A stretch of DNA of 64,000 nucleotides from Kondoa subrosea (Eukaryota), in the NCBI GenBank assembly GCA_039545335.1, contig BCIN01000001.1, forward strand, positions 1,919,129-1,983,128, written 5' to 3'. Position numbers and translations under genes: made by a program. Numbering within the stretch: position 1 is the stretch's first letter; the number at the start of each line of letters is the position of its first letter. Shown here one piece after another: positions 10,109 through 33,277 of this stretch. Under the pieces are notes generated by a model, which worked only from the letters and a program-made list of their open reading frames with translations, was not told the DNA's origin and did no database searches.

Positions 10109-13100
10109 ATGGATCTTGACGATCCAGCTACACCTCAAGAGGACATTCAAGAGCCTGTCGTTTCGACAGGGATTGAGGCAACTACTGAAATTGAAGAAGT
10201 CGAAGAAACAGACGAACTAGCTCCAAGCCCTGCTCCTGCTCTGCCTCTAGCTACTCAATCTGAATCAAGAGTAGCTACACCGAAATTGGATGAGCCTGAA
10301 TGGCAGGGAATTCAAGATCAAGTTGATATTTCCGTTGAAGAGCCTACGAAGTCAGATGCTGATTATGCTGCTTTGCAAGATGTCGTTATCAGTCAGTGAA
10401 ACTTATCAATCATTCTGACTGTCCCCCTTTCCTTATACAGTTGTGTTTATGTAGAATTGCAAGAAGATGCCGAGCAAGCTGAATTACAGCATGATGAAGC
10501 TCTGCATGATCTGAACAACAGAGTCGCAGAACTTGAGCAAGCTTTAGCGTCCAGTCAAGAATCAGCAGCTGCCTCAGCGGAGCGCGAAACTAGTCTGCAA
10601 GCTGAAAACGCGAGCTTGAAATCTGAAATCGATCAACTCAAATCTGCATCCCAAGGATCTATTTCCAAAGAAGATCTGGATCGTACTACTCTTGCGCAAA
10701 GCGAAAAGGAGAAGAGAGAATTGCTTAGCGTTGTTGAGAGGTTGGAAGCTGACAAGACTCAACTTGATGGTACGTCTAACCTAACATGGATTGACTTCAG
10801 CTCATCCTGTAGAATAGATACACTTCAAGGTCTGAGAACAACTCATTCAGCTACCTTAGCTTCTCTGCGACAACTCGAATCTTCTCTTACTACTTCATCC
10901 GATTCTGAAAGATCAGCTCGTCTACGTTTGCAAAGTATCGAATCCGAATTGGCCATTGTCATCAAAGATCGGGATTGGCACAAGAACGAATTGGAAGAAA
11001 GAGAAACGCAGTCTAAATCTTATCGAGCGGAAAAACATGCTCAAATAGTCAAACTACAGAACTCGCTCGAAACTGCTCAAAGAGAAGCTGAAACTTCTTC
11101 TAGTGCTCTCTCAAACTTACGTGTGGCTCATACTTCTCTTGAATCGAGGTTGAGCGAATCTTTAGCGAAATCTTCAGATTTGGCAGCTAAACTTGCTGAA
11201 GCTGAGATCGGCTTCAGAGACGATTTGGCTGCTCAGAAGAAATTGTGCTCTTTGTTGGAAGATCGTGATGCGAAAGCTAGCAAGAGATTGGATCAAGTTG
11301 AGCAGGAATGGAAAGAAGCTCGAGATGAGATCGAACAACGTGAAAGGTCTTTTGCAGAAGAGCTGGAGAAAGAGAAAGAAAGAGCAGATAGTCTTGAAAG
11401 TCGATTGCAAGAAGCGAGAGAATTGGCTGAGAGGCGTGCTATGGGAGTTGAAGAAGATGCGGAAATGCAAGTCGCTCTCTCTTCAGCTGGAACACCTGGA
11501 CCATCCTCTTCTGGTTTATCTGGTCTTCTGTCAACACCTAATGCCAACATGTCTTACACTAATGGTCGAACCTCCGCTATGGCTCTTTCACCTGCTGCCA
11601 GTCTCGCTACGAAGTTCCAGAAATCTGGTCGCTCTCATACTGAAGTTTATGCCGATTATGTTCGCATCCAGAACGAGCTAGCTATAGAGAAAGCAGAAGT
11701 CAAACGCTTGGGCGAATGTTTGAGCAGTATTCTTGCAGATATAGAAGATCGAGTCAGTCTTTATCTTTTACTTGGAGGTCTTGCATCATCCTAATGATCA
11801 AATTTAGGCTCCTCTCTTCCGTGAACAGAGAGCCGAATATGAGCGTGCAACAGCGGAGAATGCTGCTCTAGCTGGTCAATTAGCGCAAGTCATGGAAGAT
11901 CGCGATGGAGCAGAACGTCGTGCCATCAGCTCAAATCTGGACATTGATAACCTCAAACGCGAAAACACTACCCTTTCTCAGCAATTGCGTGATCTAGGTC
12001 GACAATCTCGAGAACTAGTACGAGAAATTGCGATGCGTGATGATCCCTCGATACAGGATCGCTCAATGGACGAACCTGATTTCGAAGACGAGATGGCAAC
12101 TTTAGCAGCTATCAACAATGTTTCGGACACGGATGCTGTCATCGATGCAAACCTAGTCACTTTCCGTTCTGTTTCTGAACTTCAAGCTCAGAATCAAAAA
12201 CTACTTCGAATCACTCGTGATCTTGGCCGTAAAATGGAAGAACAAGATCTCAATCTTCGCGAACGAATAGAACGAACAGAAAACGAAGCTGTTAACGAAG
12301 CGCATCAAGTCATTTTACGCTTACGAGAAGAATTGGAGAACGGTCGAAAGCAACTGGAAGGCGCTACTCGCGAGAGAGAAATGCTACGAAAGCTTCTAGC
12401 CCAAGCCTCACCTCAACGAAACACTCACTCTAATGGTTATTCTGATCCCTCTGCTTCTGATTCGGAAGCTTTGAGTGATCTTCGACGAATGCTAGCTGAT
12501 CAACAGGCCAATCACGAAGCATATCGAACCGAGATGACAACCGATCTCAACCGATTAAATGATGATCTTAAGACAGCTCAGACCGATGGGCGGAACTGGG
12601 AAGTTCAAGCGGCTAGAGCTAGTGCTCAAATTGATGGCCTAAGAGGTAAGCAGAACGACATTCTCCTGTATCAGTGAATCATTTCTGTTCGTAGATCGAC
12701 TTCAACTGGCGAATGATACAATAGATGGCAAGAGTAGAGAATCAGTTGAGCTCAATAAGACTATTGAAAGACTACAGAGCGCACTAGCTCGTCAAGACGA
12801 TGCTGTGTACCAAGTCAACGAGCAAGTGATGTCTCTTCGAAGCGAACGCGACCGTTTTAAGAACGATATTCGCAACCTGACCTCGGAGCGAGAAGTTTGG
12901 AAGGTGAAGCTTGTTCGAAGATTACTGATGGGGTTGCTGAATTGTGCCGTCAACAGAATACCGAAGCACGGCTGACTGCAGAAAACACCTCACTCGGCAC
13001 AGAACGCTCGCAACTGTCTGATCTCATGCGGAATCTGCAGACTATGCAGCATGAGATTGAGAGAGCATCTGGCGAAGCTCGGACTCGCTTGGAAGAGCAA

Positions 13101-16100
13101 GTCAACAGATTGGAGTCTCAACTGTAGGATAGCTTCTCCTTTGTTATATAATCGCTCTCTGACCCAAAATTTTACATTCAGGGATGATGCTCGTGGACGT
13201 CTGAACCAGGAGATGGAAGCTCATCGTCAAGCTGTACTTCGCCGAGAAGTCGAAAGCAAAGAGTTCCAAGAACGCATTGACAAGATCGTATGTTTCATTG
13301 CCTCCATGCTACTTATCATTGATGCTAAACCTGGACTCCAGACTTCCGACTTAGCTAAAGGGCATGAACAATTGAGCTTAGCTCGAAGCAGCGAAAGTCA
13401 TCTTCAGCAAAGAGTCGACGATCTGTCGACCGCTGTTGCTGCGAAAGAGGAAAAGCTCGCTGTCTACGAAGGTCGTAGCAGCTCAATTCGCGGCTCTGCG
13501 TCAGATTCGACTCTCAGTCGCGAACAGCAGCTGGAGATCGAGCTTGCCGAACTTCGGTGCGTTGCCTACACATGTATGTGTTTACAAGCTGAAGGCTTTT
13601 GTAGTGGTCAATTACGCGCAGCGCAAGTTGAAGCCAAGCAAGCTAGCCAGCATGCTCAACAATACAAGTCAATATCCATGGCTACGGAGGAAGCCTTGGC
13701 TGACCTCACTACCACCTATGATCAATACAAAGAATCAACTGAAGCGAGTCTGTCGAGCAAGGACGTGAGTCGAGACACTATCTGCTCCTTTGGCTTTTAC
13801 TAAAGGGCGCCCTTTCTTTGACAAAACAGACTGAGATAGCTACACTTCAAGAAAAGGTGCATTCCCTATCTAACGATATATCACAAGCGAACAGTGAAAA
13901 CTCCACTCTGCATCAAGACTTTGCTCGCCAAAAGAAAGAATTGGAAGACCAGATTCGCAGCATCGAGCAGTCGACCTCACATATTCATCAGTCCGAAAGT
14001 GAAGCACGATCTGCCGAAAGTGCCGCAAAGACAGATTTGCAAGCACAAGTTCGTTTGGCTACAGAAGCTCATGAGAAGTATGAACGAGAATTGGTAGCTC
14101 ATGCCGAAGATGTCAAGGCTTTGTCTCAGATCAAAGAAGATCTGTCCAAATTGCGCTCAGAAATGCAAGGTCACCGCCAAGCTGCTGAAACAGCTGAAGC
14201 AAACCTAACGGCATCGCGAACAAGCTGGACCAATCAGTCGGCCGCGCTAAATAAAGAGCTTGATGATCTCAGAAGCAGGTCAGTATCGCTACGGAGGTTT
14301 CAAGTCTCTTCTGACACTTTCCTTCTTCTCCTTTCAGGCATCAAGAGCTACGATCACAGAATGCGCTACTGCATCAACATCTCGAAACAGTGTCATCGCA
14401 AGCTGCCAAAATCCAGCAAACAGCTGCGAACGAGTCTTCGGTATCTGAAGACAGCTCAACGGACGACAAGCTATCGAAAGTGGTCCATTACCTGCGGGGT
14501 CAACAAGAAATTCTAGAATTGCAGCTACAGATCGAGAAGCAAGAGAAAGCACGCATGACTGCTAAACTAGAGAGCGCAGAACGTAATCTGGATGAAGCCA
14601 GGGCTCGATTAACAGAGGTACCGATCTATCCTACTCTTCCACTTCGTGTATCCCATAATGCGCGAGCAGGAACGCAACTCGGCAGGCGATTCTGTCGCTT
14701 CGCAAGCTCAGCACAATGAACTCTTGGCGAAGGTCAATCAGCTCAATGTTTTGAGGGAATCGAACGATACTTTGCGAGCAGAAAGTGAAAAGCACTCTCG
14801 TAAAGCTAGATCTCTTATGGAACACGTCCAATCGCTTGAAGATCAGCTAAGTCCGCTGCGAGAGCAAGTCGCGATCATGCAAGCCGAAATTCAGGCGCGA
14901 GACGCTCAAATCAAGCTGCTAGAACAAGACAACGCTCGATGGAAGGCTCGAAACGAGCAGGTCCTGGCGAAATACGAAAGGATCGATCCAGCAGATTTGC
15001 AGAACCTCAAGCAAGAAGTCCAGGAACTACAGTCTGCATTGGAAGGCCAGAAGAATGCCACAGCAGCAGCAGAATCCAGCTCAGATGCCTTGCAGGCAAG
15101 AATTAACGAGTTGAGTGCTGTTTCGGAAGAACGGGATTCTTTGCGAGAGCAGCTGTCGCAATTGCATGCATCCAGTCAGAGCAAAGCTATGGAGGTAAGC
15201 TATTTGATTGTGTTCCTAGAATTTGGCTTACAAATATCAGTCCGCCCAGCAAGCTGAAGAAGTTGCTAAGTGGACTCGAATCGCAGAAGACAATAACCGA
15301 CGCTTCAAGAGCATTCAGACGACTGCTAAAAATCAACGGACGGAAATCAATGCGCTGCAGAAACAATTCAACGATCAAGCGAAAGAGCTGGAAGCGGCGC
15401 AGAAAGCTCTTGAAACATCTAACAACAACAGCGGCCAGAACCTTGAGTCTCAGAAGGCCCTCGAAGAGGTAAATCGTGCAGCACGTCCCGGTTGCAAAAG
15501 CTTATTGTTCTTCACAGTCCCATGTCGCACAAACAGCCGAACTTGAAAAGCAGCTCGTGAGTCCATCACTTGAGCGTGTTTGCAAGCTGATCTTCGTTAT
15601 AGTCTGCTTTGCGATCAGCGTCAGCTGCTGCAGAGATCCAGCAAGCTCAATTGCAAGCAGCTCTCGACACCGCACGGAAGCAGGCCGAAGACGCTAAGCA
15701 ACTAGCGCAACAGGCCGCGAAAGAAGCCGAAGATGCTCAAACCCAGCTCACTACCTCTCTAGCGAACGCTTCCGCTCAAAAAGAGGAGACTGTTCGAGCA
15801 GAAGTGGAGAAGCGGCTTGCAGAGTCATCCATTCCGGCAGTCGCCGGTACAGAAGGCGAGACGGATGAAGCAAGACAGAAGCAAATCGCTGCTGCTCAAG
15901 ACAACATCAACAAGGAACGTTCTCGGGCCGTAGATGATGCTGTAAATCAAGCCAAGGCTGAACATGAACAAGCTTTGTCGACATTGCGCTCTCAGCTTGA
16001 GGAAGAAAGGACCTCTGCCTTGCAAGCGGTCAAGGAGGAGACTCTTGCGCTTCAATCAGCAGCTGTCCAGCAAGCGATTCAAGAGACCTCTGCTCAACTA

Positions 16101-16952
16101 CAAAAGCAACTGCAAGAGGCCGAAACTACTTACCAGTCTCAGCTCAAAGCCATCACAAACCAAGTGACTGATCTTACGGAGAAGCTTACAACCATACAAA
16201 CGCGTGAAGCGGAACTGCTAGCGAAACAAGCAGAACTCCAGAAGGCTGCCGATAGTGCATCTGCGCCTGTGCCAGAAGCATCGCCGTCTGTAGACATAGA
16301 CGCAATTGTTCAGCAAAAGTTGGCCGCAGACCGAGAAGAACAGCAAGCTCTGCACAAAAAAGTACTTGAAGACGAACGCAAAGCGCACGAAGCTGTCTTG
16401 CAAGAGAAAGTAGCGGCTGCCAGTAAAGAAGGCCAAAGCAAGATCAGCAACTACAAGACACAGCTTGACAAAGTTCGCTCAGAGAACTCCAAACTGAAAA
16501 ATCTGCTCGAAGCTAGCAAAAAGGAAGCATCCGCTACAGCATCAGCAAGCTCTTCTAATGGCGAGGGCAATGCGGCAAAACCTTCCGATATTCCTCCTGC
16601 ACCTACACCGAGCGCTTTCAATGTGAAAGGAAGAGCTTCTGATATTCCTCCTGCTCCGACTCCAGTTAAACCAGTCGTGAAAGCGAAAGCAGCAGAATCG
16701 CCAGATGCTGTTACAGTACCTCAGATCGGAAATCGTGGACGAGGGCAGTCGAACCGAGCGAGAAGAGGAGCTGCAGCCACGCGAGGCGGAGGTCCTGGAG
16801 GAAGGCAACTTTTACAAGTTGCAGCGGCGGCAGCAGCCAATGCGGCAGATTCAGCGACTGCAAGTCCCCCTCCTGGCACTCCTCCAACGAAACGTCAAAG
16901 GGAAGAAGGTGAAGTAAGCGAGACTGAGGGTAAAAGGCCGCGAGCAGGGTAA
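10109..16952 (+). CDS. MLP1: Nuclear basket coiled-coil nucleoporin Tpr/Mlp1
   Basis: Very long coiled-coil exons; SHTEVYADY, NLVTFRSVSELQAQNQKLLRITRDL, TPR/MLP1-type AHEKYERELVAHAED, YERIDPADL; RG-rich/basic C-terminus. Confidence 0.92.
16584..16663 (+). repeat. Short coding direct repeat (SDIPPAPTP twice) in the Tpr/Mlp1 tail
   Basis: tccgatattcctcctgcacctacacc and tctgatattcctcctgctccgactcc. Confidence 0.7.
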
Positions 16953-20842: not shown

Positions 20843-23476
20843 CTACGCCTTCAGCGCTTCAGCAGCCCGCAACATCGCTTGTCGCAAGTTTGATAATTGC
20901 TCATTCGCCAGCTTCGCATCCTTGTCCAGCGTGATAGCTTCTGTTAAACCTGGCAGACTTACAGCTCCGTAGCCGAGCCACTAAAGAGGTGATATTAGTC
21001 CGATTTCAGAAATCAGATCAAAACTAACTCTACCGCTATACGTTCCAATTCGTAAGCATTATCATTCAACGCATTGACAGGAAGACTTACGGAGCGATAC
21101 CAAGATGTCTATACCAAGGTCTATTCGGTAATCCCTTCTCGGAAAGAAAAGCCATCTCGAACGCTTTCAGTCGGACATTGAGCAGTTTGGCTTTACGTTC
21201 TGCCTTGTTCTTCGCTGAGCGATGTCGTTTGGAGTGATTCAACGTATATTGAGCTTGCAGACCAAGTCTTTCTGCTTCAATGGCATTGGCGGCTGATATG
21301 ACCTCATTAACCGCTTCTCGCAACGAAGTGATGTTCAGATCATGGAAAGAGCCATGGATAGGTGTTACTGTTTTGGCCAAATGAGAGATCTTGTTGACTC
21401 CATTGTCCAATTCCCGAGCATAATCGACGAGATTGAGAGGCAGAACAAGGTTATGGGCTGCCTCCAGTACTGCTAGACCCATCACTTGTGCGATAGCAAC
21501 TTTGCGCTTGCCCGAAGGATCTCCATACTTTTCCATCCATTCTTGACTGTCGTACATCTGTTGATCTTATAAGCTTTCCAACACCAATACAATGTTTTAA
21601 CCTGAATCACTGACCGAATGATAGTGATAGACTTTACACACATTCCGTTAGCTCAATATCCTAAAGAAAGGATTTATCTTACCTGGATCTTTACTGCTAA
21701 AGGTGAACCCAACATCAACTGAAGCTATCCCAAGTCTTTGTAAGAAGACCGTATAATCGGATCCAGAACCTAATTGAGGTAGATGATCGTATTTTGCCAG
21801 ATAGTCAGCAAGCGTAGTATTAGCTTCATCAGGCGCAGCGACTTTAGCTGTTACTCTTTTGAATAGAGAAGCGAGAGAAGGTGAGGCTGCGAATTTGAAG
21901 ATGCTGCCTGCTACAGCAACGTCCACGTTCAGATACAGTGCGACCCTTTTCTGTATCATCTTCGAAAAGTCTTCACCAAATTCAGTGCTTCCGATCTGTT
22001 TGAGATTCTTCAGTTTTAGGCGCACAAATAGGCACAGCGAGCGAATGACTCACAAGTCCATACTCCTCGGCATCCCAAGAAGCGAACACAATCGTTCTTC
22101 GAGGCCTCCAACCCTTCTTTAGCAAAGCACCAACACCCTGCACAACCTGAGTCATAGCAGCTGTCCCGCTGATCGGATCACTAGCTCCTTTATCCCAAGC
22201 ATCCCGATGATTACCAACAAAGATGATCTCCTCTTCCGCTTCTCGACCAGGAATGACAGCATACATATTATAAATGGGTTTGATGCTTTCGTGAACTTGA
22301 TTATTCATTTCTACTTGAACTTCGGAAGGACCGGTATAGTATTCAACGCCTGAATTCGTCAATCCTCCATTCCATTCCGGTATTTGCTGACCAAGACCGT
22401 TCAAACTCTTTAACAAGGGTAAAGCATCTTCATAGCTGATTGGTAAAGAAGGGATTCTAGGTATGCTGAGATTCGGATCTTTCGTATCTAGACGAGTAGC
22501 ATTCTTGTAAGAAGGCAAACCGGGAGTAGTTGGATCACCAGGATAGAGAGATAGGAATTGGACTGAACCTCTTTGCACTGATGTGGGCTGACGAGCTGGT
22601 CCATTCGGATATGCTTCATAGCCATTCTCAATAGTGATCTCTCCATCGTCTCCAGGGTCAGAATAGATCAAGACGCCTGTACATTCAATCAGATCTATTT
22701 GCGGCATGGCTTGGAGACCCACCAATTGCCCCTGCGTTTTCTGCTTGACTAACTTTCAAGCCTCTAAAGATATGACCGTACTTGACTATCAAGATCTTTC
22801 CTTTCAAGTTTACACCTTCTTTCGCCAATCTTTCGAAATCTTCTCTAGTTCCATAATTTCCAAAGACCAATTCTCCTTTCGCTCTTCCACCTTTTGAGAA
22901 ACCGTGGAATGAAGGTACATCACTTTCTTCATGACCAGGGAAATTCCGTTCTTTTAATCCAGCTTGAAAGATCATACTCCCGTTTGAATCGAGCATCGAG
23001 AGAGAAGAATTACCCAACGGATGGTTTACGAGAGTGTAGTAAGTATCTAAATGAATTCTAGCTTTTCGTCCAACGTTCAAATCAAAGGCAGATTGAGATT
23101 CGATGGAACCAGATTCAAAGATCTCATCGCTCTTCTTCACATTCAACGCTTCCTCCCACTGTCTTCGCAAGATTTCGACTGATCTCAGACCTGCAGCCGT
23201 ACCCGCTATATGTGTTGACGAAGTAAGTGATCGAGAGATTTCACGAGCCGAAGTAGGATTAGGTCCATGTTTTAGGAAATAGTTCTCGATTTCAGTCTGA
23301 GTAGAGAAATGTTTGCGATGCTTGTATATTACTACTGGAGGTGCACATAAAGTCAAGCAGAGCAGAAGAAGCCATAATCGAAAAGTAATCAGTCGTATTA
23401 AAGGACTCCTTGATCGGCGCTCTACTGTACGAGGAGGGGTATCGATCAAAGGCGTCTTCTCGCTATATACAGTCAT
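20843..23476 (-). CDS. M28B glutamate carboxypeptidase II / transferrin-receptor-like peptidase (PA + TFR dimer domains), type II membrane
   Basis: N-terminal TM segment, PA domain (NYGTREDF, YGHIFRGLKV), GNHRDAW, GASDPISG, SWDAEEYGL, YLNVD, LGSGSDY, YHYHS, GLPNRPWYRH. Confidence 0.93.
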
Positions 23477-23619
23477 AACACAGGTATATTTACAGTAGCA
23501 CTTGGCTGCTTGTGGAGCAATAATGCACTTTTGTCTGCGAACTGGCTCGGTCCTCTTCAATTTAGGACTCTACAAGGGACATTCGTTGATCTCAAACGAC
23601 GACGGAGCAACGCAATGAA

Positions 23620-23840
23620 TATACAGTACCTTTGGTTCGCGTCTATGTTCGATCCCTATCCAACAAAACCCTCCCTTCACAAACCCCGAGACGCGCCTCA
23701 CGATGCCAAGCAAGCTCGATCCAGCGTCCAACAGCGACCAATGAATGATCCGTTCGGAGGTCACCCCAATGTAATGCACATCATATACCCCGACCAACCA
23801 GTCCAAGGACCAGAAGTTCGCAAGTGCCAATACGGGGCAA
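23620..23840 (-). ncRNA. Candidate omegaRNA (guide scaffold) of the Fanzor-like gene; boundaries approximate
   Basis: G/U-rich non-coding stretch 210-430 nt 3' of the Fanzor stop, same strand, with about six consecutive small stem-loops. The position fits Fanzor/TnpB omegaRNAs. Inference only. Confidence 0.45.
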
Positions 23841-24052
23841 CAAAAGAGACGTAAATGCTCAAGAGGTTCGAAAGAAATTGAGTTGTTGAAAAGGATGCCA
23901 TAGTATAAGCGAAGTCACAGCAATGTCGAGAGAAAGTTGAAAGAAAGAAAGCTGACATGAGCAATAATCAAATTGATACATCTGGTCAAGAGGAAGTTGA
24001 CTCACATAACGATACTTTGCCCGAGATGAACAACATACTGCAGAACAGCTTT

Positions 24053-27000
24053 TCATGCAGTTGAACGTTTGTGGAGATGATTGTTATAGTAGGGGTTGGC
24101 GAGAGTGCCTGCAATGCGATTGACCCAAGGTCCGGAGTTTCGTGCAGTTTGTTCAGCTTGACGAATGCGATTCACTGCAGCAGGATGCATGTTGTATATC
24201 GGTCGTTGACCATTCGCACGAATAGTTGCTTTACCAATATCTCCCACAGTACTGGAAGCACCACCATCTCTGGAGATTATGATTACCAAGTCAGCACGAT
24301 CCGTAGATTGAGCGGGAGGAACATGGCGATTGAAGTTGTTAGGTGCAGGAGGCGGAGGAGGAGGATGATCAGGAGCCATCATGCGCAGGTTCTTGTCAGG
24401 CAGTACTGTTTCCGGAGGAGCATTGCAAATAGTACAGCCAACTAATCGACTTGCTTCTCTCCAAACTCGGTGCTTGTGCTTCGTAGTGAGCCGCAAAGTT
24501 CCATCAGGCATCTTGCAATGTCTTCGCTTCTTGTGACTACCTGATCCTTGTGGTCGAGCATAAACAATCCTATAGTATAGTTTCAGCACATATCGCAGGG
24601 ATACAGTCAAGTAAAGCTTACTCATGACCATCAGGGCAAGCCCATACCCGACTAGCTATCTTGACACCCTTGTGAGGCGTCATTCCAGAAAGCCTTTCAG
24701 CAGGATCGGCACCAGCCAAAGGCGGAGGCAAAGCAACATCAATGGGAGCAGAAGAATGTGAGCAGAGCGCAGTAGTATTGTACGGGTGGACCAGAACCAC
24801 TCCATTGCCGCCATGAACTGCTGAAGATCTTGCCATTTCCTGTCATCTGTCATTAACAAAAATCTTGCCAAAATACTTTAGATTGCTTACCTTCTGAGCA
24901 GTGGCGCGTCTGCCTCGTGCTGCTTTTCCGTAACCCATCTCCCAAAACACAAGAGCAGGTACTCTCTTCTGCCTTGGCTCCTTCTCAACTGTCGGAATGC
25001 CTTTATATAAACTCTTTCGGCGCTTTCCTCGTACTCGCTTCTTTCGCCGTTTCCTATTTTCTCTAAAAACTATCTTCTGACCTTCTTCGAGGAAGTAGTC
25101 ACGAGACAAGTTGAAAGAGATAAAATCGTCTGCTTTCCGCTTTGCATGAGCATCCGCAGCCTGACGATCGAAATGTCTTGAAGAAGCTTTACAAATTCGA
25201 TTAACGAAGCGAGACATCGGGCCGTAGTGATCGCAGTGGATAGAGAAGTATTGAGAAAAAGCTTGAAGACCGCCAACAACGATGCTTTTGGATGTTTCTT
25301 CCAATTGTTTCATGCGCTCATCGTAACTTGGCGGTCCAGTCAGATCTCTGCTCTTGTATGCTTGAGCATTTCTTCTTCTCTTCAGCGCGACGATACGCTC
25401 ATCACGAGCTGTGAGGGTTTGCTCGGCAATCCATTTTCCTGAGATAGACCGCCTATGAGATTTGTATTCTTTCGAAGCTTCTTTAGTAGCTTCATCAAGT
25501 TCTTGTTGTTCTTCAGGTGTCAGATTAGGATTCGTATCAACAACAAACTTCACATGCTGCAATTTCAGTCCCAAGACCTCTCTACTTGTTCTTGCATTTT
25601 GGTCGACGGATTGTGTAAGATAGGTCTGACCAGGATCCACTTGGATCACCTTGCTCTGACCTGGCCCTGGATTATCGAGGAAGCGATCGGCAGGAAGAAG
25701 CGGATTGTTATTCAAAGTTGTTAGAAATCCAGTGTTGTCGGTGTCTGGAAATACTTGATCTACCAAAGGCATCTGCTGATGCTTGTTTGCATTGAGATGA
25801 AGCTCATCGTAGTCCGCTACGCGATTTGCTAAAGCCAAGTGAGGTTTCCTAGCTAATTGTTCCGCTGTTGCCTCCCATTCAAAGCAGAATTGCAGTTCTT
25901 TCTCTCCGTCGCTTTTGAAGTACAATTTCGTCAGAGGAAGGTCTTCTTTGCACTTTCGATAGAAGAACCGAGATCCGGTAGCGTTGCCTTTCAGATGCGG
26001 GGTGTTGGGAAAGGCGTCACGAAAGTTGCCATTCGGATGCAAACGTGTAAAGAAATGAGCCATAGTGCTGATTTGAGTTTCCACATCTTCGGATCTTCCA
26101 GGTTTGCGGCGCCTTCCGGTCTGAGAAGCAAAGTTCAGCTTACATCTTCATTCGAATTAAGATCACTTACACTATCAACAATCAACAGTCTTTCTGGAGT
26201 GATTGCTGGCAAGGAATAGTATTTCTTCTGAACAGCCGGGATAATCACACGGACGAGCAGTTCATGATTTATGGCAATAATTTCAGTCTTCAGCTTTGTT
26301 TTTCTAGGACAGATTTCGATGGGAGAGAAAGAGGGGGGAAGCTCATCGTCTTCGTTGTATGAAAGGGAGGTATATCGAGCGGATAAGTAAACCATGATCG
26401 TTGCTGCAGATTCATATAAAGTCTCGTTGTCGCCAATGACTGATGACCAATCAGCCCCAACTCGAGTGATCTCAAAGCGAGCTGTTGAAGTTGAATCTGG
26501 TACGGGATTAGGCGCATCGGGAATAATTTTCCGCTTGCGACCTGAAAGATCTTCTCGCTCAGGATCAAGAGACCAGACTAGAAGAGACCAGATGTTCATC
26601 AAAGAATTGACTATGACTTGGCGATCAGCTTGGTTGTAATCAAAGAGAGGTTGATTGTTGTTGTTGAAAAACAAAGTATGATTAGGACCCCAATTGTATT
26701 CAGGGAGCGGATTTTGAGCGTGTCGGTTAGCCACATAGAGAGGTTGAAAGAAAATTTGAGATAGCGTAGAGAAGGCCGTACTTTCTTCAGCTGAGATAGG
26801 TAAATTGGACAATTCGCATTCGATGACTTTCTTAAGAGCCGAATCAAAGTTGTGCTTATAGTAGCCTTTGAGTTCGCCCATAAGAAATGGAGCTTGGCTT
26901 TTCTTCAAATAATAGAATTGCTGTGATCGAGAGGGATTTCTCAGCTCGCGAAGGTTGATTTTGCTAGGATCGGTATGAGCTGGAGCAGTTGCTGGAAAGG

Positions 27001-27520
27001 CATGGTTTGCAGGAAGGTTAGGAACTAGACCAGGCCGAATAACGTGTTGATAAGTCTCACTTAGACGATGTTGATAAACTCCAGGCTGAGCTTTTCCAGG
27101 ATCGGTTCTGATAGTTTCCAAGACACCTTCACCAAAGCTTGTGTTAAACCGAATTTCAGGTTGCGAGATCGTGGGTATAGGTAAAGGAGGTGAGTCTGAG
27201 TTGATTGGGCTGAAGAAGACTTGGCCAACTGGATTTGGGATGTGAATGTCAGTTGTCGGGTGATTGGTCAAGAAGATTGGTGATTGCGCCGCTTGAACAG
27301 CAAAGCCTTCGTTGATAAGAAACCGGTAGGCACCTCTTCGAATATGAGCACCAAGAAGGTAGAGAGCAACAAAATGCCATCTAGTCCAAAGTTTGGCCAA
27401 ACTTCGAATTTCAGCCCTGAAGCGCAAAGCTCCTTTGTCACCGAGGACTGATTTCGATACACCGCTAGCTAAAGTGCCATGTCTTCTGGTCTTTCTTTTG
27501 CGAGTCTTCTTTGCAGGCAT
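24053..27520 (-). CDS. Fanzor1-like RNA-guided RuvC endonuclease (TnpB/Cas12 family), ~1104 aa, 4 coding exons: 27520-26171, 26120-24891, 24839-24622, 24569-24053
   Basis: RuvC-I VIQVDPGQTYL, RuvC-II region LVFWEMGYGKAARG and VVLVHPYNTTALCSH, Zn-finger half RLVGCTIC, RuvC-III ISRDGGASSTVGDIG, C-terminal GQRP.Y. Upstream FSPIEICP..IAINHELL and FKSDG motifs. Basic N-terminus MPAKKTRKRKTRR. Three 50-52-nt GT-AG introns join the ORFs in frame. Confidence 0.85.
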
Positions 27521-28948
27521 GCTATACAAATGTAAGGTGAGCTGCGGTGCGGTGGAGACTTTTCAAAACCAAACTTACATGTGAAGACAGATAGTACAGT
27601 AGGTTCAACAATATGTATTGAGTAGCAGAGAAGAAGATCCAATGGGACTGAATAGTTTGCAACGCGCACTTAGCCCTATTTTCGGCAACTGGGTCAATGC
27701 AGCTTACGTGCCCTCGTCACTGAGCGAAAGAACGTGAGCGAGGATCTATAGCTGCCGAAGCTTACTCACATTATGAAAAGGAGAAAGTGCGAACAGAACG
27801 TATATGCAGAAAACGAAAACGCAGCGAAGCCAGTACGAAGAGTGAAAAGTTTCGCAGATTAGAACGAAAAGGAGATCAAAGGACAAGCAAAGGAGTATCG
27901 AAGACTAATAAGAAGCGTCTCGACCCGTTTGCGAAGCGTTCAGTACATGAGCTGTCACGGTTGAGAGAAGAAGAAGTTTTTGGAAAAAAAGCCAAGTGCT
28001 TGAGTCGCTTCCTCCTCATCTCGAGCCACTACGATAGCGGAAGGAAGTGTGAACAGCAGCAGAGGTAGACAAATGTGCAGAGACACTTTTGAAAATGCAA
28101 CCTTGCGTTCTCTTGCTTCAACGAGCCAAACAATTCCCTTACCTCTTTGCTCTGTCTGCTCTCCTCATGAATGATCAGGCTGCGACCTACAGAGCAGTAC
28201 TTCACTTTCTGGTCTCGCTCTTGAGAACAGGGCGATAGTCCACTCCAAATCGATTCTTTTCAACGTTGAAAAACCCTTTTGCCGGACAGTTCGGAGCAAT
28301 TACTTTCACAGGCTGTATGCTACACTGAGTATGCCGCAACCAATCGCTGAGCAGGATCCCAAAACTCGAATGCAACATCTAGTCTTCTATTCTTTGTTCT
28401 CAAGTGATAAATATTTGGCAAAGCAACAAGTCATGGTGGTCTGTAGAGGGAAAGGTAGATCCTGGAATGCCGCATCGCCATCTCAATACACTTCATCTAA
28501 TATTCGCACTGCAATCTGGCTTCGACCTATGTTTTCGGTCATACTGCGAAAGGTTTCCATTGGCTTATGCACCTGTACTCTAGCTCGGTCAGTGAAGTCA
28601 TTGCTTCAAGCGTGATGCAGTATTTGCTAATCAATGCAGGAGTTACCCTTCTCACTTCAATCCAGGTAGCTAGCTGCTTTCTTTCTTGAGGCGATAGATT
28701 GGGTCGTGACACTTTCGCCTTTCTCGTACAGGCGGAACACTACATATTAAAGCTAGCTCTACTTTCAGTCGCATTTCAAAATTCCTTTGGTTTCAAATAC
28801 AAGTTCCTCTCAAGTCCGTTCCACCTTGACATTAGCATCGCAATACCGTCCCCTTCACTGAGCAGCTGGTCCATATGAAGTGTAGAATGCAAATCAGGAA
28901 CTAGATTCTTGTCTGGAAAGCGACAACATACCAAAACTGCACTCAAGT

Positions 28949-30067
28949 CTAAGCAATACGAGCTCGCTTTGAGCGTCTCAACGTTTCACTTGCGTCTTCA
29001 TGGGTTCTGCGAGCTGTACGAGTGGAAGGTCCTGGACTAGTAGGCATTCTTAAAACAAGACGAGGTCGTGCTGATGCAACAGGATTAGGAGCATGACTAG
29101 AACCAGAACCAGATGGAGCAGCAAAAGTAGAGCCAGAACCAGAGCCAGAGCCAGAGCCAGAGCCAGATGGAGCAGCAGCAGCAGTCTCACCCATAGTTGG
29201 ATCATCTGCAGTAGCCGAAGGATCTTCATCCTCTTCAGTTCTTGGATCGACATCGACGGAAGAAACAATCTTGGTCGAGTGCTTGCTGACCATTTGGCGG
29301 ATGAAGGTCATAATCTGTTCTTTGTTGAGCTGCTTGTCCTTGTTCTTCTTGCTCTGAATCTGATTTTGCAATTTCAACGAGCAAAATCCCAGCATAACCG
29401 TGAAAGGAGTTTTCTTGTTGCCCTTCTGTCTCAAAGTTTCCAAGATCTTCGAATCAAGCTCTTCATGTTCTTCAGGATGGTCAGTCAAATACATCCCAAC
29501 CATGACCGCGTTCAGCATGTTGCTTCCACCTGTCCAACCGTTGTACTTCAATTTCACCAATTCCGGCAGACTGCACGGATTGCCCTTTTGGATACACCAA
29601 ACCTCCTCTGCCATCTCTCCTGCTGTCAGGTCTTTCTTGCTCAACAAAGTAAAGCCATGAAGTCTTATTTTCATGTCCGTCTTCACATTCCCGCTCATGA
29701 CTACGAAAGTTTTCTTTTCGGTTAGATGCGCTGGGAATTTGGCTAAGAATTCGTCTCTAGCAGAATCCCATTTAATCGTTCTCAAAGATCTGCCGCTGGC
29801 TACTGTTTCTTCGACAGCTGGAGTTGGCGGATTTTCTTGACGAGCGCTCTGGGCTGTTCATGCTTTCATGAGCCTTGTAACAGATTGGTATCGTATTCAC
29901 ATACCTCCGCGACGGTGAGCCAGCTCAACCGCTGAAACAATTGCTTTCTTATAATCAGCAGCCAATTTCTGCTCTCTTCTCTCTTGTTCCTTCTTGTGCT
30001 TCTTATTGTTCGCCTTTATGGCTGAACCTATCATATCCTGCACATCTTCTCTCGAGATGGAGCTCAT
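28949..30067 (-). CDS. Orphan protein (2 exons): N-terminal coiled coil, globular core, Gly-Ser linker, basic C-terminal tail
   Basis: ATG at 30067 (MSSISREDVQ...), donor GTATGT at 29904 splices in frame into the 278-aa ORF, which ends ...LRRSKRARIA*. Confidence 0.7.
29129..29167. repeat. Hexamer microsatellite (AGAGCC)n encoding (SG)n
   Basis: agagccagaaccagagccagagccagagccagagccaga. Confidence 0.85.
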
Positions 30068-30607
30068 TTCTCGTCTGAACTCGACTGTTCAAAAAAAGAA
30101 CAAGCTGAAACACGTAATACAGAGTTCGGTATATCGGCGCGCATCTGCCGACCAAACACCGCAGTCTTTGCGATCAAGACCTACATCTTAGGGTTATGAG
30201 AGGTTTGAAATCCGCTTACTTCATTGGCTATTCCACTCATCAAATGCCTAGACCTCTATCAGGCTTTAACGTCACCGCAGCAACACTGCAAATCGTCGAC
30301 CATCCCGCCAATGTCCGTGCTACTAGCTACTTCACTTGGAGAGCTGATTGTGAGTTACTGGGCCAATCTACTGGAGACGCTAACAAAGCGGGGCATAGGT
30401 TGATCTTAAAGTAAACAGCTGTTTCAAGACTTGCGAGAAATACCTGTAGGTGAGCTTTGCATGAGCAGCTCTGGGACTTCAGCGAAAAATCTTGCTCTTT
30501 CAAAAGAGATGACAGATGAATGCAATGCAATGATTATTTACAAACGGTCTTATGAATTCACTTCAATTTACTACTCAGAATGTCCTCTTCTCTATCATCT
30601 AGAGCAC

Positions 30608-31393
30608 TTAGGAGGTGAAGGTGATGGTATCGATGACGAGGTAAGGACAGCCAGTATCAGTCTTGACGCGAGAGTCTTGTAAGTTGGAACTGTTCGAACC
30701 AAGTCAGACTGATCAGCATAACTCTCGACAGACTCGCAAAAGGAAGGCTCACATGGTAATGGTCGAGGTTTCCTCAAGTACCAAGTCGCCTTTGTAAGTG
30801 TAAACAGAAATACCATCGGCAGAATAAGCGTCGCCTGAAAATCAGAAGCAGATGAGCATGCAATGTTCAACTGCGAAAGGGCAAAAATCACCTTGCTGAC
30901 AGTCCCTAGTTCCAGTAACGCAGATTCTGAAAGCACCTCTATCATTCTTGGTATCGACATTGATGCTGCCGATCAGAGTCGAATCAGCAGGGACACAATG
31001 CACAATGCAATGCGGACGAACTTGAAAGTGGTAGACAATTCGGGAACGGCAATTTGCCAATAAGCAGAGCAGTTGTCAGTGTACTCGATAGCTTGACCAG
31101 CATTGTCTTGACCAGCAGTCCAAGATGGAGTAGTTTTAGCTGAAAGAGAAACACGAGGTATGAGCTGATCGAACTGAACGTGTGTATAATGACATACGAG
31201 CAACATAGTAGGTGACCTCAGGCGAGTTGCTGATCGCGAGAAGCAAGTCAGATGCAGCTCACTAAAGACTGTTGACGAGTACTGACGCGTGATACACTAC
31301 CGGCTCATGAGGTGCGCGTTTGGCAATAGAAGCTGCAGAGACGCTCATGACAGCAGCAGAGATGAGAGTGATGATAGAGATAATTTGAACCAT
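30608..31393 (-). CDS. Small secreted beta-sandwich protein (galactose-binding/CBM-like), ~165 aa, 5-6 exons
   Basis: Signal peptide MVQIISIITLISAAVMSVSA, Kex2-type KR site, then spliced ...DTKNDRGAFRICVTG..DAYSADG..TITISNLQD..PYLVIDTITFTS*. Four Cys. Confidence 0.7.
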
Positions 31394-31708: not shown

Positions 31709-33277
31709 CTATGCTTTGATGTTCTGCTCACGATCCTCTACCACTTCTTCGCATCCTTCCGCTGTCGAGGTAACAAATGATCGCCTTCTTCGATCAACAT
31801 CGTATCTTCTCGAGAACCCTCGGTCGTCCCGGATCGAATCTCTTCCGCTATCTCTTCTCGAATCTCTTCTATCGTCTCTTCTAGGACTACGGCTTCTAGT
31901 TCTCCTTCTTTTATTGCTAGAATGACTGTCCTCTTCCGCAAGATCAAAGACAATAGAATGACCTTCTCCTCGATGCGAAGGTGGAGGCGATCTGGAACGA
32001 CGATGTGATGGACCTTTGTTCGGTGGCGCTCCACCTCCACTGAAACATCCAATGAAACTTCAGTCTAGTATCCAATTCAAGCGGTAATTGGGATTCCACT
32101 TACGTTTTGCTAAAGACGCATTGCCCATGAAGATGCGGTACACCTGTGAGAGAGTGAAAAGTTAGCCAAAGCTTCATATATGTACACAGTGCATAAGAAG
32201 GACTGACTTTGAAAGATCTCAACATGAATACGCCTGTCGTCAATCAAGACATTATCCATCTTTACATAAGCTCTTTCCGCTTCTTCCCTCTTATCAAACT
32301 CGATGAAAGCATAATTCAAACTATCACCAGTTTTTTGACTTCACAACTCAGAATAGTACCAAATCTTGAAAAGATGAGTTCTAGATCTTCTGATCTTGTG
32401 ACTGCGTTGAATTTACAAACAAAGAGCACGTTTTCTGGTGGTCGAACATCAGCAAAAGGTAAATGTCCAACCATTTCCAAAGTGAGAGCTTGAGCTCGAG
32501 CTTCAGCTGCTCTTTCTTTTAGCTTCTTTTTCTTCTTCGTCTGCAGTAGGATCTTCTAGTTCTTCTTCATCACCTATTCGTAACGATTTGAGTTGAGCTT
32601 TAGTAGGTACTGGTGAATCTGGTGGAATGACCAAATCAGGCGGATCAGGAAATGGGTCGTCTTTTGTTTCTGTTAGTACTGCAAGTGAAAGACGGAAGGA
32701 AATAATGTCAGACGCACCAAGTGCTATAACATGCCGTATCCTGACATCCCTCAAAGGTCTATAACTCGCATCCACAAACACCTCATTCAATTTCCTTAAA
32801 GTCGTTATACTTTCTTCTCCTACGACCTTCCCAAAAGGTACATGTTTCCCATCTAGATAATCCATATCTTGTTTCAAAGTGAAGAAGAATTGAGAACCAC
32901 AAACTTCATTTGCTACTGCCATTGAAAGTGTACCGAAACATGCATGCCGAAGTTTAGGTAGTTTGAATTCTGGAGTGAAATAAGGAGAAGAAGGGAAGTA
33001 GGCTGATCCACCTGAACCTGAATCTGTTGGATCACCAGTTTGGGCGATGAAATCTTGCTGAACATTGAAGAAAGAGCACAAGTTGTAGTGATATGTTTTG
33101 CAGAGCTGCGGCCACACATGTTATATTCAGCGTGTGTATCTCTCAAGTAAAGCTAGAAGGAGAGCTCACCTTTAAGAAAGATCAACCTATTGCGTTGCTC
33201 TGTCAGCATAATGATACGTGAGGGACAAAGCCACTCACAATCAGATCTCCGAGCGAAGTCTCGAACACCACAGACAT
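31709..33277 (-). CDS. PPIL4: Cyclophilin-RRM protein PPIL4 (Cyp59/Rct1-like)
   Basis: [80 protein letters not shown]-rich tail. Confidence 0.93.

Follow-up and report, generated by a model that had tools for sequence, protein, structure and literature searches.

A divergent Fanzor1-like gene of Kondoa subrosea with glutamate at a candidate canonical RuvC-II position and proline at the alternative site

We analyzed a 64,000-nucleotide (nt) window of the Kondoa subrosea genome (NCBI GenBank assembly GCA_039545335.1, contig BCIN01000001.1, positions 1,919,129 to 1,983,128 of the forward strand; coordinates below are counted from its first letter) and found on its minus strand, at 27520..24053, a gene resembling the eukaryotic Fanzor nucleases. 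Four open segments in different frames are joined by short GT..AG introns; spliced by coordinates in a script, the four exons and three introns give 1104 codons with 0 internal stops. The initial annotation of the locus had assigned D612, E844, P879 and D1034 to particular codons, and the spliced model reproduced that numbering exactly (Table 1). The best explanation of the sequence is that the gene encodes a very divergent, 1104-residue Fanzor1-like member of the RNA-guided RuvC nuclease superfamily. Its unusual feature is a glutamate (Glu), E844, at what appears to be the canonical RuvC-II position, combined with a proline (Pro), P879, at the site where Fanzors carry an alternative Glu.

To place the protein, we compared it with 47 complete prokaryotic TnpBs, obtained from 120 genome loci matching the pattern TSQTCS.CG; RuvC-I was present in 46 of the 47. 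In HHalign profile comparisons, the segment RATAQKEMARSSAVHGGNGVVLVHPYNTTALCSHS (RATAQK..VLVHPYNTTALCSHS) aligned with the TnpB junction of helix, strand 5 and TNB at a probability of 89% and a score of 40.6, against 9.4 for the reversed segment and a mean of 7.9 (maximum 12.7) for 60 column shuffles. The RuvC-I segment scored 25.3, while its 60 shuffles reached at most 15.4 and its reversed control 11.7; in its alignment VIQVDPGQ paired with the TnpB GIDxG column and D612 fell on RuvC-I. The two alignments are collinear, and a comparison of the whole family already paired DPG with GIDxG and V.P..T..C with V.P.yTSQTC. The aspartate at 612 is invariant in all 13 family sequences.

Profile libraries gave weaker signals at the same place. 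Exon 3 matched PF07282 (Cas12f1-like TNB) at E = 0.15 and 12.7 bits, and the remote homologue P0009 matched it at the same motif at E = 0.024 and 15.2 bits, both below the gathering cut-off of 26.3; exon and homologue queries found no significant match in Pfam, NCBIfam, PHROGs or PDB sequences. The Fanzor1-type scaffold proposed in the initial annotation was thus recovered at the level of motifs and profiles but not at Pfam thresholds or in a structure. In the ESM Atlas, the nearest clusters of both P0009 and exon 2 were DUF8286 proteins (PF26935) with or without TNB, at scores of 0.95-0.96, and the DUF8286 neighbor clusters came from Nucleocytoviricota, Mucoromycota and Zoopagomycota; we take these neighbors as a lead that agrees with the profile alignments. 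Judged on the alignments, the protein very probably belongs to the TnpB/Fanzor superfamily.

Within the superfamily, the evidence points to descent of the gene family from Fanzors. Yoon et al. (2023; PMC10711439), in the sections available to us, define the Fanzor fingerprint as DPG at RuvC-I together with an alternative Glu in the motif ExxxxxxC before the zinc finger, describe DPG as almost exclusive to Fanzors, and explain earlier "Fanzors with canonical Glu" as misannotated prokaryotic TnpBs. DPG was found in 11 of the 13 family sequences, including the K. subrosea protein (VDPGQ); none of the 46 TnpBs with RuvC-I in our sample has it. For other motifs we compared by eye with part 1 of 139 of Jiang et al. 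(2023) Data S1, supplemented by two string searches of the whole file. The residues YFKSDGEKELQF at position 519 resemble the wedge-domain TDG motif of Fanzor1 (described in PMC10711439), and FKSDG occurs verbatim in the family-4 Fanzors Fanzor50_0444 and Fanzor50_1148; RSISG, following RuvC-I, is also present in Fanzor50_0475. The strand-G-E-G-x6-K-G of the homologues is similar to the Fanzor1 strand-G-[DANLK]-[WGAP]...KG of Data S1, exemplified by G-D-W...KG, and has the same ten-residue spacing. Nine of 12 family strings had 0 matches in Data S1, where sequences were covered to 400 characters and C-terminal parts therefore lay mostly outside, and the three that matched (RSISG, VDPGQ and FKSDG) are short generic motifs.

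Further points of likeness to Fanzor1 are the junction V-x-[site]-x-x-T-[TS]-x-x-C, a basic N-terminus, the presence of introns and a putative RuvC-III motif of the RD-G-x-A-S type. In addition, RuvC-I is separated from the candidate strand 4 by ~230 residues, which may correspond to the enlarged helical REC2 of Fanzor1s. The distance from D612 to E844 is 232 residues, while that from D324 to G416 in the Fanzor2 protein ApmFz2 is 92 (bioRxiv 10.64898/2026.06.23.733943, as far as accessible). In other respects the protein departs from Fanzor1: it is 1104 residues long, compared with up to ~800 for the Fanzor1s in the available text of Yoon et al. (PMC10711439); its zinc finger is degenerate and carries an insert of ~90 residues; the second knuckle and the RD motif are 40-50 residues apart, with a proline run among them; the gene occurs once, and neither transposon ends nor a transposase were seen; and the protein is too dissimilar from published Fanzors to match any of them directly. 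The two Glu sites, with Pro for the alternative Glu and Glu for glycine (Gly) at the strand end, form the most specific difference and are treated below. In a search for Fanzor2 sequences, a viral scan with rearranged-type TnpBs yielded 80 loci; the residue after the RuvC-I Asp was Leu in 58 and Ile in 6 and was not found in 16, and as none had DPG, the loci were left out of the comparison. As a separate observation, in rearranged-type viral TnpBs such as L121 (IMG/VR) the alternative Glu is followed by NEESYTSKVDALAKEP, and zinc-finger cysteines are lacking altogether.

The alternative site is the clearer of the two. The parts of Jiang et al. (2023) that we could consult give the Fanzor RuvC-II residue as Pro or Gly, place the alternative Glu ~45 residues later and describe it as universal in Fanzors, in agreement with Yoon et al. 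(2023; PMC10711439) and with the premise of the initial annotation that most Fanzors lost the RuvC-II Glu and use another. In the K. subrosea protein, P879 precedes the first zinc-finger Cys, C886, by seven residues, which is the Glu position of ExxxxxxC, and the sequence reads PYNTTALC. The profile alignment, too, puts P879 in that column, as had been proposed. Canonical TnpBs have Pro in this column and rearranged ones Glu; among the 47 TnpBs the column holds Pro in 22, Glu in 10, Phe in 9, Trp in 3 and Ala in 3, bearing out the earlier statement that TnpBs often have Pro there. A different acidic residue at the alternative site would have contradicted the initial annotation; GVVLVHPYNTTALC contains neither Asp nor Glu. 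As judged from the alignment and the spacing, this shows that the Fanzor alternative Glu has been replaced by Pro.

At the canonical site, the sampled TnpBs read strand-E-[DN]-L in the canonical types and strand-G in the rearranged types. The K. subrosea protein reads PALVFW-E-M-G, with the Glu right at the end of a strand-like stretch. From the basic and helical-insert region up to the helix that aligns with TnpB, PALVFW is the one hydrophobic segment that resembles a strand. AlphaFold2 predicted long helices between RuvC-I and strand 4 at a predicted local distance difference test (pLDDT) of 60-75 in the model of exon 2. Because E844 directly follows the only candidate strand 4, it would occupy the slot of the canonical Glu, or of the Fanzor Gly, and it may be the structural counterpart of the canonical Glu at RuvC-II. 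This placement is uncertain by a single residue. If the strand is taken as the anchor, E844 stands in for the Gly; if the conserved [KR]-G further on is taken instead, E844 and the Glu of every homologue that has one fall nine residues before it, and on that count the K. subrosea protein and P0009 may lack the Gly.

For the third catalytic position there are two candidates. D1034, the RuvC-III Asp of the initial annotation, lies within RDGGASSTVG 52 residues after the CTIC knuckle, behind the proline run, and resembles the Fanzor RDG.AS motif. The initial annotation had remarked that RDxN reads RDGG; it does, but this is not alarming because published Fanzors have HRDGNAS and HRDGVAA at that place (Jiang Data S1, part 1 of 139). 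The motif RD..AS.T[IV]G is common to the protein and P0009 (RD..AS.TIG), the one homologue with a C-terminus for this comparison, and HHalign pairs RDGGASSTVG with TnpB D.NAA.NI (RD.NAA.NI), although the alignment of the RuvC-III segment with TnpB is not significant. D991, in LPDKNL, is only nine residues after CTIC and so near the usual spacing, and P0009 reads LPDRNL. Neither candidate aligns significantly with TnpB. Of the two, D1034 is the more probable RuvC-III Asp, and the earlier assignment holds for the residue and its motif, the RuvC-III role being putative. The proline run itself, PDHPPPPPPAPNNF at 24339-24371 in exon 4, lies between the second zinc knuckle and RDGG, and short direct repeats of the GGAGG type occur there.

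We searched for homologues with a full HMMER scan of 1.84 billion protein representatives, in which exon 2 retrieved seven proteins at E <= 0.001; a profile search added one more, P0017, giving ~8 lineages in total, none of them named. Searches with exon 2 against longer proteins only and with exon 4 were empty. No matches were obtained in metagenome contigs queried with the family alignment and P0011 or in viral contigs queried with the family alignment and P0009, and a search of prokaryotic genome contigs with P0009, which reaches close relatives only, found no relative. The closest relatives are ~50% identical over 400 residues, while P0009 is 23% identical. Most homologues are gene-caller fragments that run on as V-S, V-R or V-G after the residue preceding intron 2 (P0005, P0006, P0008, P0011, P0012, P0013 and P0017), and since they do so after the same residue, the phase-0 position of intron 2 is suggested to be shared in the family. 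The remote P0009 reads straight through and has no intron there, and P0010, of 205 amino acids, ends before the first Glu site.

The homologues differ at both sites. At the first, P0009 has strand-E-A-G and thus the strand-E-x-G of the K. subrosea protein; six others (P0005, P0012, P0017, P0006, P0008 and P0015) have strand-G-E-G; P0013 and P0016, from the same 90% cluster as P0008, have G-Q-G; P0007 has G-I-S and P0011 G-T-G. At the second site P0009 again has Pro (VNPAGTSTTC; PAGTSTTC). The state of P0006, 49% identical to the K. subrosea protein, could be narrowed down indirectly: in its predicted protein a 53-nt intron is translated along with the exons and exon 3 follows out of frame. The shifted-frame peptide is collinear with exon 3 of the K. 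subrosea gene and compatible with it at 42 of 64 positions (2000 permutations: mean 23.8, maximum 33). Because this tail is exon 3 in the wrong frame, its codons can be enumerated, and they allow only Glu, Lys or Gln at the position of P879, followed by Y/H, D/H/N/Y, two positions allowing Thr and a possible Cys seven residues on. The layouts are thus E...P in the K. subrosea protein and P0009 and G(E)...[E/K/Q] in P0006, and both Glu layouts occur among relatives that have diverged by ~50%, with E...P recurring in the remote P0009. Such a pattern is expected for a compensated relocation, on the basis of three sequences and one ambiguous residue.

The gene appears to be an intact, spliced, single-copy eukaryotic gene, and its eukaryotic nature is beyond doubt because of its three spliceosomal-type introns and its place among host genes (Table 1). 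The neighbors are ordinary eukaryotic host genes: an M28/PA/transferrin-receptor-like peptidase (21087-23560), a TPR/MLP1 nucleoporin (10457-16952) and a cyclophilin (32503-33117). In Logan contigs of two runs, ~19 million letters each, one contig spans 21000-29086 with 0 differences, and a second copy at >=80% identity was absent from those contigs; a tblastn search found no other copy within the 64-kb window. The basic N-terminal start, MPAKKTRKRKTRRHG, looks like a nuclear localization signal, and exon 1 had no family match in Pfam, NCBIfam or PHROGs.

Table 1. Coordinates of the parts of the Fanzor1-like gene and of the residues discussed, counted from the first letter of the window
Feature	Coordinates	Strand	Residues	Description
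Exon 1	26171..27520	-	1-450	Basic start MPAKKTRKRKTRRHG
Intron 1	26121..26170	-		50 nt, GTAAGT..CAG, phase 0
Exon 2	24891..26120	-	451-860	Wedge-like KSDG, RuvC-I, long helical insert, basic stretch, candidate strand 4 with E844
KSDGEK	25899..25916	-	519-524	Candidate counterpart of the Fanzor1 wedge TDG motif, by-eye comparison
D612 codon GAT	25635..25637	-	612	KVIQVDPGQTY; RuvC-I Asp within DPG
E844 codon GAG	24939..24941	-	844	ALVFWEMGYGK; candidate canonical-type RuvC-II Glu, directly after candidate strand 4
Intron 2	24840..24890	-		51 nt, GTAAGC..CAG, phase 0, contains an in-frame TGA
Exon 3	24622..24839	-	861-933	Last codon split; helix, strand 5, VHPYNTTALCSHS junction, start of large zinc-finger insert
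P879 codon CCG	24783..24785	-	879	VVLVHPYNTTA; Pro at the Fanzor alternative-Glu position
Intron 3	24570..24621	-		52 nt, GTAAGC..TAG, phase 2
Exon 4 and stop	24053..24569	-	933-1104	Remaining zinc-finger insert, CTIC knuckle (978-981), LPDKNL, proline run, RDGGASSTVG, C-terminal tail
D991 codon GAC	24395..24397	-	991	LPDKNL; rival candidate RuvC-III Asp, 9 residues after CTIC
D1034 codon GAT	24266..24268	-	1034	IIISRDGGASS / SRDGGASSTVG; RuvC-III Asp of the initial annotation
Stop codon	24055-24053	-		Coding part of exon 4 is 24569..24056

The marks of a Fanzor transposon, namely inverted repeats, a transposase and a 3' guide RNA, were not found at the gene. No inverted repeats flank it and no transposase domain was seen among the neighboring genes; Rfam gave no match for a guide RNA, and the sequence on the 3' side of the gene does not fold more stably than its shuffled versions (z = +1.36), although a guide RNA may escape tests made on a single sequence. 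Among 174 windows scanned on both strands of 23560-28950, one had z < -3: the minus-strand stretch 25240-25419 (180 nt, within the part of exon 2 coding for the helical insert) folds at -55.5 kcal/mol with z = -3.34, and 0 of 200 shuffles were as good. The fold could be due to chance (~0.07 expected) or be an RNA element. Further upstream of the gene, a minus-strand open frame at 28949-29785 (278 residues) has no Pfam match and ends in a Ser/Gly-rich tail, SGSGSGSGSGS; a repeat at 29087-29189 within it was skipped in the comparison with the Logan contigs. At 30460-31000, ~3 kb upstream, short contigs with variant letters, a raised summed depth and a joint that "goes back 196" mark a repeated or heterozygous stretch.

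We tentatively favor, at slightly less than an even chance, the reading that this Fanzor1-derived RuvC nuclease has its catalytic Glu back in the canonical slot, with Pro tolerated at the alternative site. The starting state would have been the Fanzor1 motif seen in the homologues, with a strand, a Gly and an acidic residue. Loss of the Gly, or a change of Gly to Glu together with one deletion further on, would bring an acidic residue to the end of the strand, and the alternative Glu could afterwards have been released to Pro. The proposed triad is then D612-E844-D1034 (or D991), as in TnpB and in ApmFz2-EP; in the Fanzor1 SpuFz1 the catalytic residues are D383/E541/D606 (PMC10432273, in the part available). 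With such a triad E844 may reach the active site, and the enzyme may be active and RNA-guided.

A precedent comes from engineering. ApmFz2-EP is a 520-residue Fanzor2 carrying G416E and E467P, and according to the accessible part of its description (bioRxiv 10.64898/2026.06.23.733943) it is catalytically active, having gained trans-cleavage and nearly lost cis-cleavage. The K. subrosea protein likewise combines a Glu at the candidate canonical RuvC-II site with a Pro at the alternative one, on a Fanzor-like scaffold; it differs in being natural, Fanzor1-like and known from sequence alone, whereas ApmFz2-EP is an engineered compact Fanzor2 with measured activity. ApmFz2 G416E/E467P shows that an E...P layout can be active in a Fanzor. 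In a more far-reaching version of the reading, which we regard as doubtful, the Glu relocation typical of Fanzors was undone in a natural Fanzor1 lineage of eukaryotes: a change of one residue where strand 4 ends would have moved the common acidic residue next to Gly into the canonical slot, and the alternative Glu would then have changed to Pro. By analogy with ApmFz2-EP, such an enzyme would favor TnpB/Cas12-like collateral (trans) cleavage over cis cleavage, and its single-copy setting free of transposon marks would point to a function recruited by the host.

Several observations weigh against a return of the catalytic Glu. The whole-family HHalign comparison with TnpB reached a probability of 7.6%, and the strand-4 segment gave no significant alignment with TnpB, so the Glu at the first site, as proposed in the initial annotation, is suggested by topology and not by alignment. 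AlphaFold2 models of exon 2 with 10 sequences (pLDDT 50) and of P0009 with 13 sequences (pLDDT 44) were unusable. E844 and P879 are 35 residues apart, compared with ~45-52 between the two sites in the sampled TnpBs, and if the sequences are aligned from the downstream KG, E844 could be just the noncatalytic acid that follows Gly in many Fanzor1s. Nor is the Glu conserved: among 11 informative homologues it stands directly after the strand in 1 and one residue later behind Gly in 6, and 4 lack it (Gln in two, Ile and Thr). The position after Gly is not strictly constrained in the P0008 cluster, since P0008 and P0015 have Glu and P0013 and P0016 Gln at ~90% identity. A maximum likelihood tree of 12 rows, with P0010 left out, has support at 2 of its 8 inner branches; it needs two changes for the state with Glu directly after the strand, while the supported branches also allow one origin of E...P. 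The zinc finger is degenerate, its first knuckle being C886-S-H-S in place of CxxC and its second, C978-T-I-C981, ~90 residues further on, and P0009 does not conserve the knuckle cysteines (it has CPSS and CLH/CRYAAC). Finally, the RuvC-III Asp has two candidates, D1034 and D991, and inverted repeats, a transposase and a structured 3' RNA were looked for and not found.

Many of the same observations would fit a nuclease-dead or weakened domesticated Fanzor, in which the alternative Glu was lost to Pro, E844 is an ordinary noncatalytic acid after Gly, and the protein acts as an RNA-guided or plain DNA/RNA binder. This is the main alternative, if on balance a somewhat unlikely one. It would account for the single copy in the Logan contigs and the window, the absence of terminal inverted repeats and the ordinary host genes on either side; for a Glu that is absent in 4 of 11 homologues and varies between Glu and Gln inside one 90% cluster; for the degenerate zinc finger; and for E844 being the +1 acid of Fanzor1 when counted from the downstream KG. 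Bacteria offer a parallel in the TldRs, which are not known to keep the catalytic residues or the C-terminus. These domesticated, nuclease-dead TnpB derivatives serve as RNA-guided repressors (review PMC13565253, as available to us), and the K. subrosea protein may likewise be a domesticated, immobile derivative of a transposon nuclease. Unlike the bacterial TldRs, however, it has retained its two aspartates together with a candidate Glu. All 13 family sequences share D612, RD..AS is kept in the 23%-identical P0009, and the Glu lies exactly at the strand end in both sequences that have Pro at the alternative site, all of which speak against this alternative.

The preferred reading of a Glu returned within the Fanzors would also be mistaken if eukaryotes had independently captured a canonical bacterial TnpB outside the Fanzor lineage, with E...P as the ancestral state. 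The E...P layout is the commonest among TnpBs, as all 22 of the 47 with Pro at the second site have strand-E or close variants at strand 4, and the remote P0009 has E...P without an intron after strand 4. The protein resembles canonical IS200/IS605 TnpB (e.g. ISDra2) in its proposed D-E-D order, a Glu at the end of the candidate strand 4, the Pro before TS..C and the helix/strand-5/TNB segment that aligns at 89% probability. Canonical TnpBs differ from it in having D-hydrophobic-G in place of DPG, ~400 residues, an intact CxxC..CxxC, a Glu 45-52 residues before the Pro and an origin in prokaryotic insertion sequences, with no introns. Of the three readings offered in the initial annotation, a separate capture came out as the least likely, because the family has DPG, seen in 0 of 46 TnpBs, and the homologues carry the Fanzor1 Gly motif. 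The KSDG wedge motif, RSISG and, in the homologues, G-[DE]-G...KG have counterparts among the Fanzor1s of Jiang Data S1, the genome-contig search (reaching close relatives only) found no prokaryotic relative, and the nearest language-model clusters are eukaryotic or from giant viruses. We consider such a capture improbable.

Less probable still is that the protein is unrelated to TnpB and Fanzor and that DPG, the Glu, V.P..T..C and the RD motif are chance likenesses in some other eukaryotic protein. The lack of a significant match in Pfam, NCBIfam, PHROGs or PDB sequences, the whole-length HHalign probability of just 7.6% and AlphaFold2 models that show no RuvC fold would be explained, but two collinear local profile alignments far exceed their shuffled and reversed controls, two proteins of 23% identity independently show a weak TNB match at one and the same motif, and the language-model neighbors agree for two different queries. 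A decaying, functionless relic of a Fanzor element is the most improbable of all: the family is tiny (7 representative clusters among 1.84 billion proteins) and some members are without Glu or truncated (P0010), but an uninterrupted frame of 1104 codons, intact GT-AG sites and correct phases in all three introns, and closest relatives ~50% identical over 400 residues with an apparently shared intron position argue otherwise.

Literature searches, with most subscription papers lying outside their coverage, found no report of a natural canonical-Glu Fanzor1 or of a domesticated Fanzor, and passages of Jiang (2023), Yoon (2023), Schargel (2024) and Saito (2023) describe neither. Within that coverage, the E...P arrangement has not been described and appears new for natural eukaryotic Fanzors, its activity being a prediction. 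The gene breaks the Fanzor fingerprint as set out in the available text of Yoon et al. (2023; PMC10711439), having DPG without the alternative Glu. If E844 is noncatalytic, the gene would be a candidate for the first domesticated nuclease-dead Fanzor and a eukaryotic analogue of TldR. Should E844 be catalytic, the RuvC-II Glu would have a position that evolution can reverse inside eukaryotes, and the protein would be nature's equivalent of the engineered "EP" Fanzor with its gained collateral cleavage; the proposal that the Glu relocation was selected because it suppresses trans-cleavage in large genomes could then be tested on it directly.

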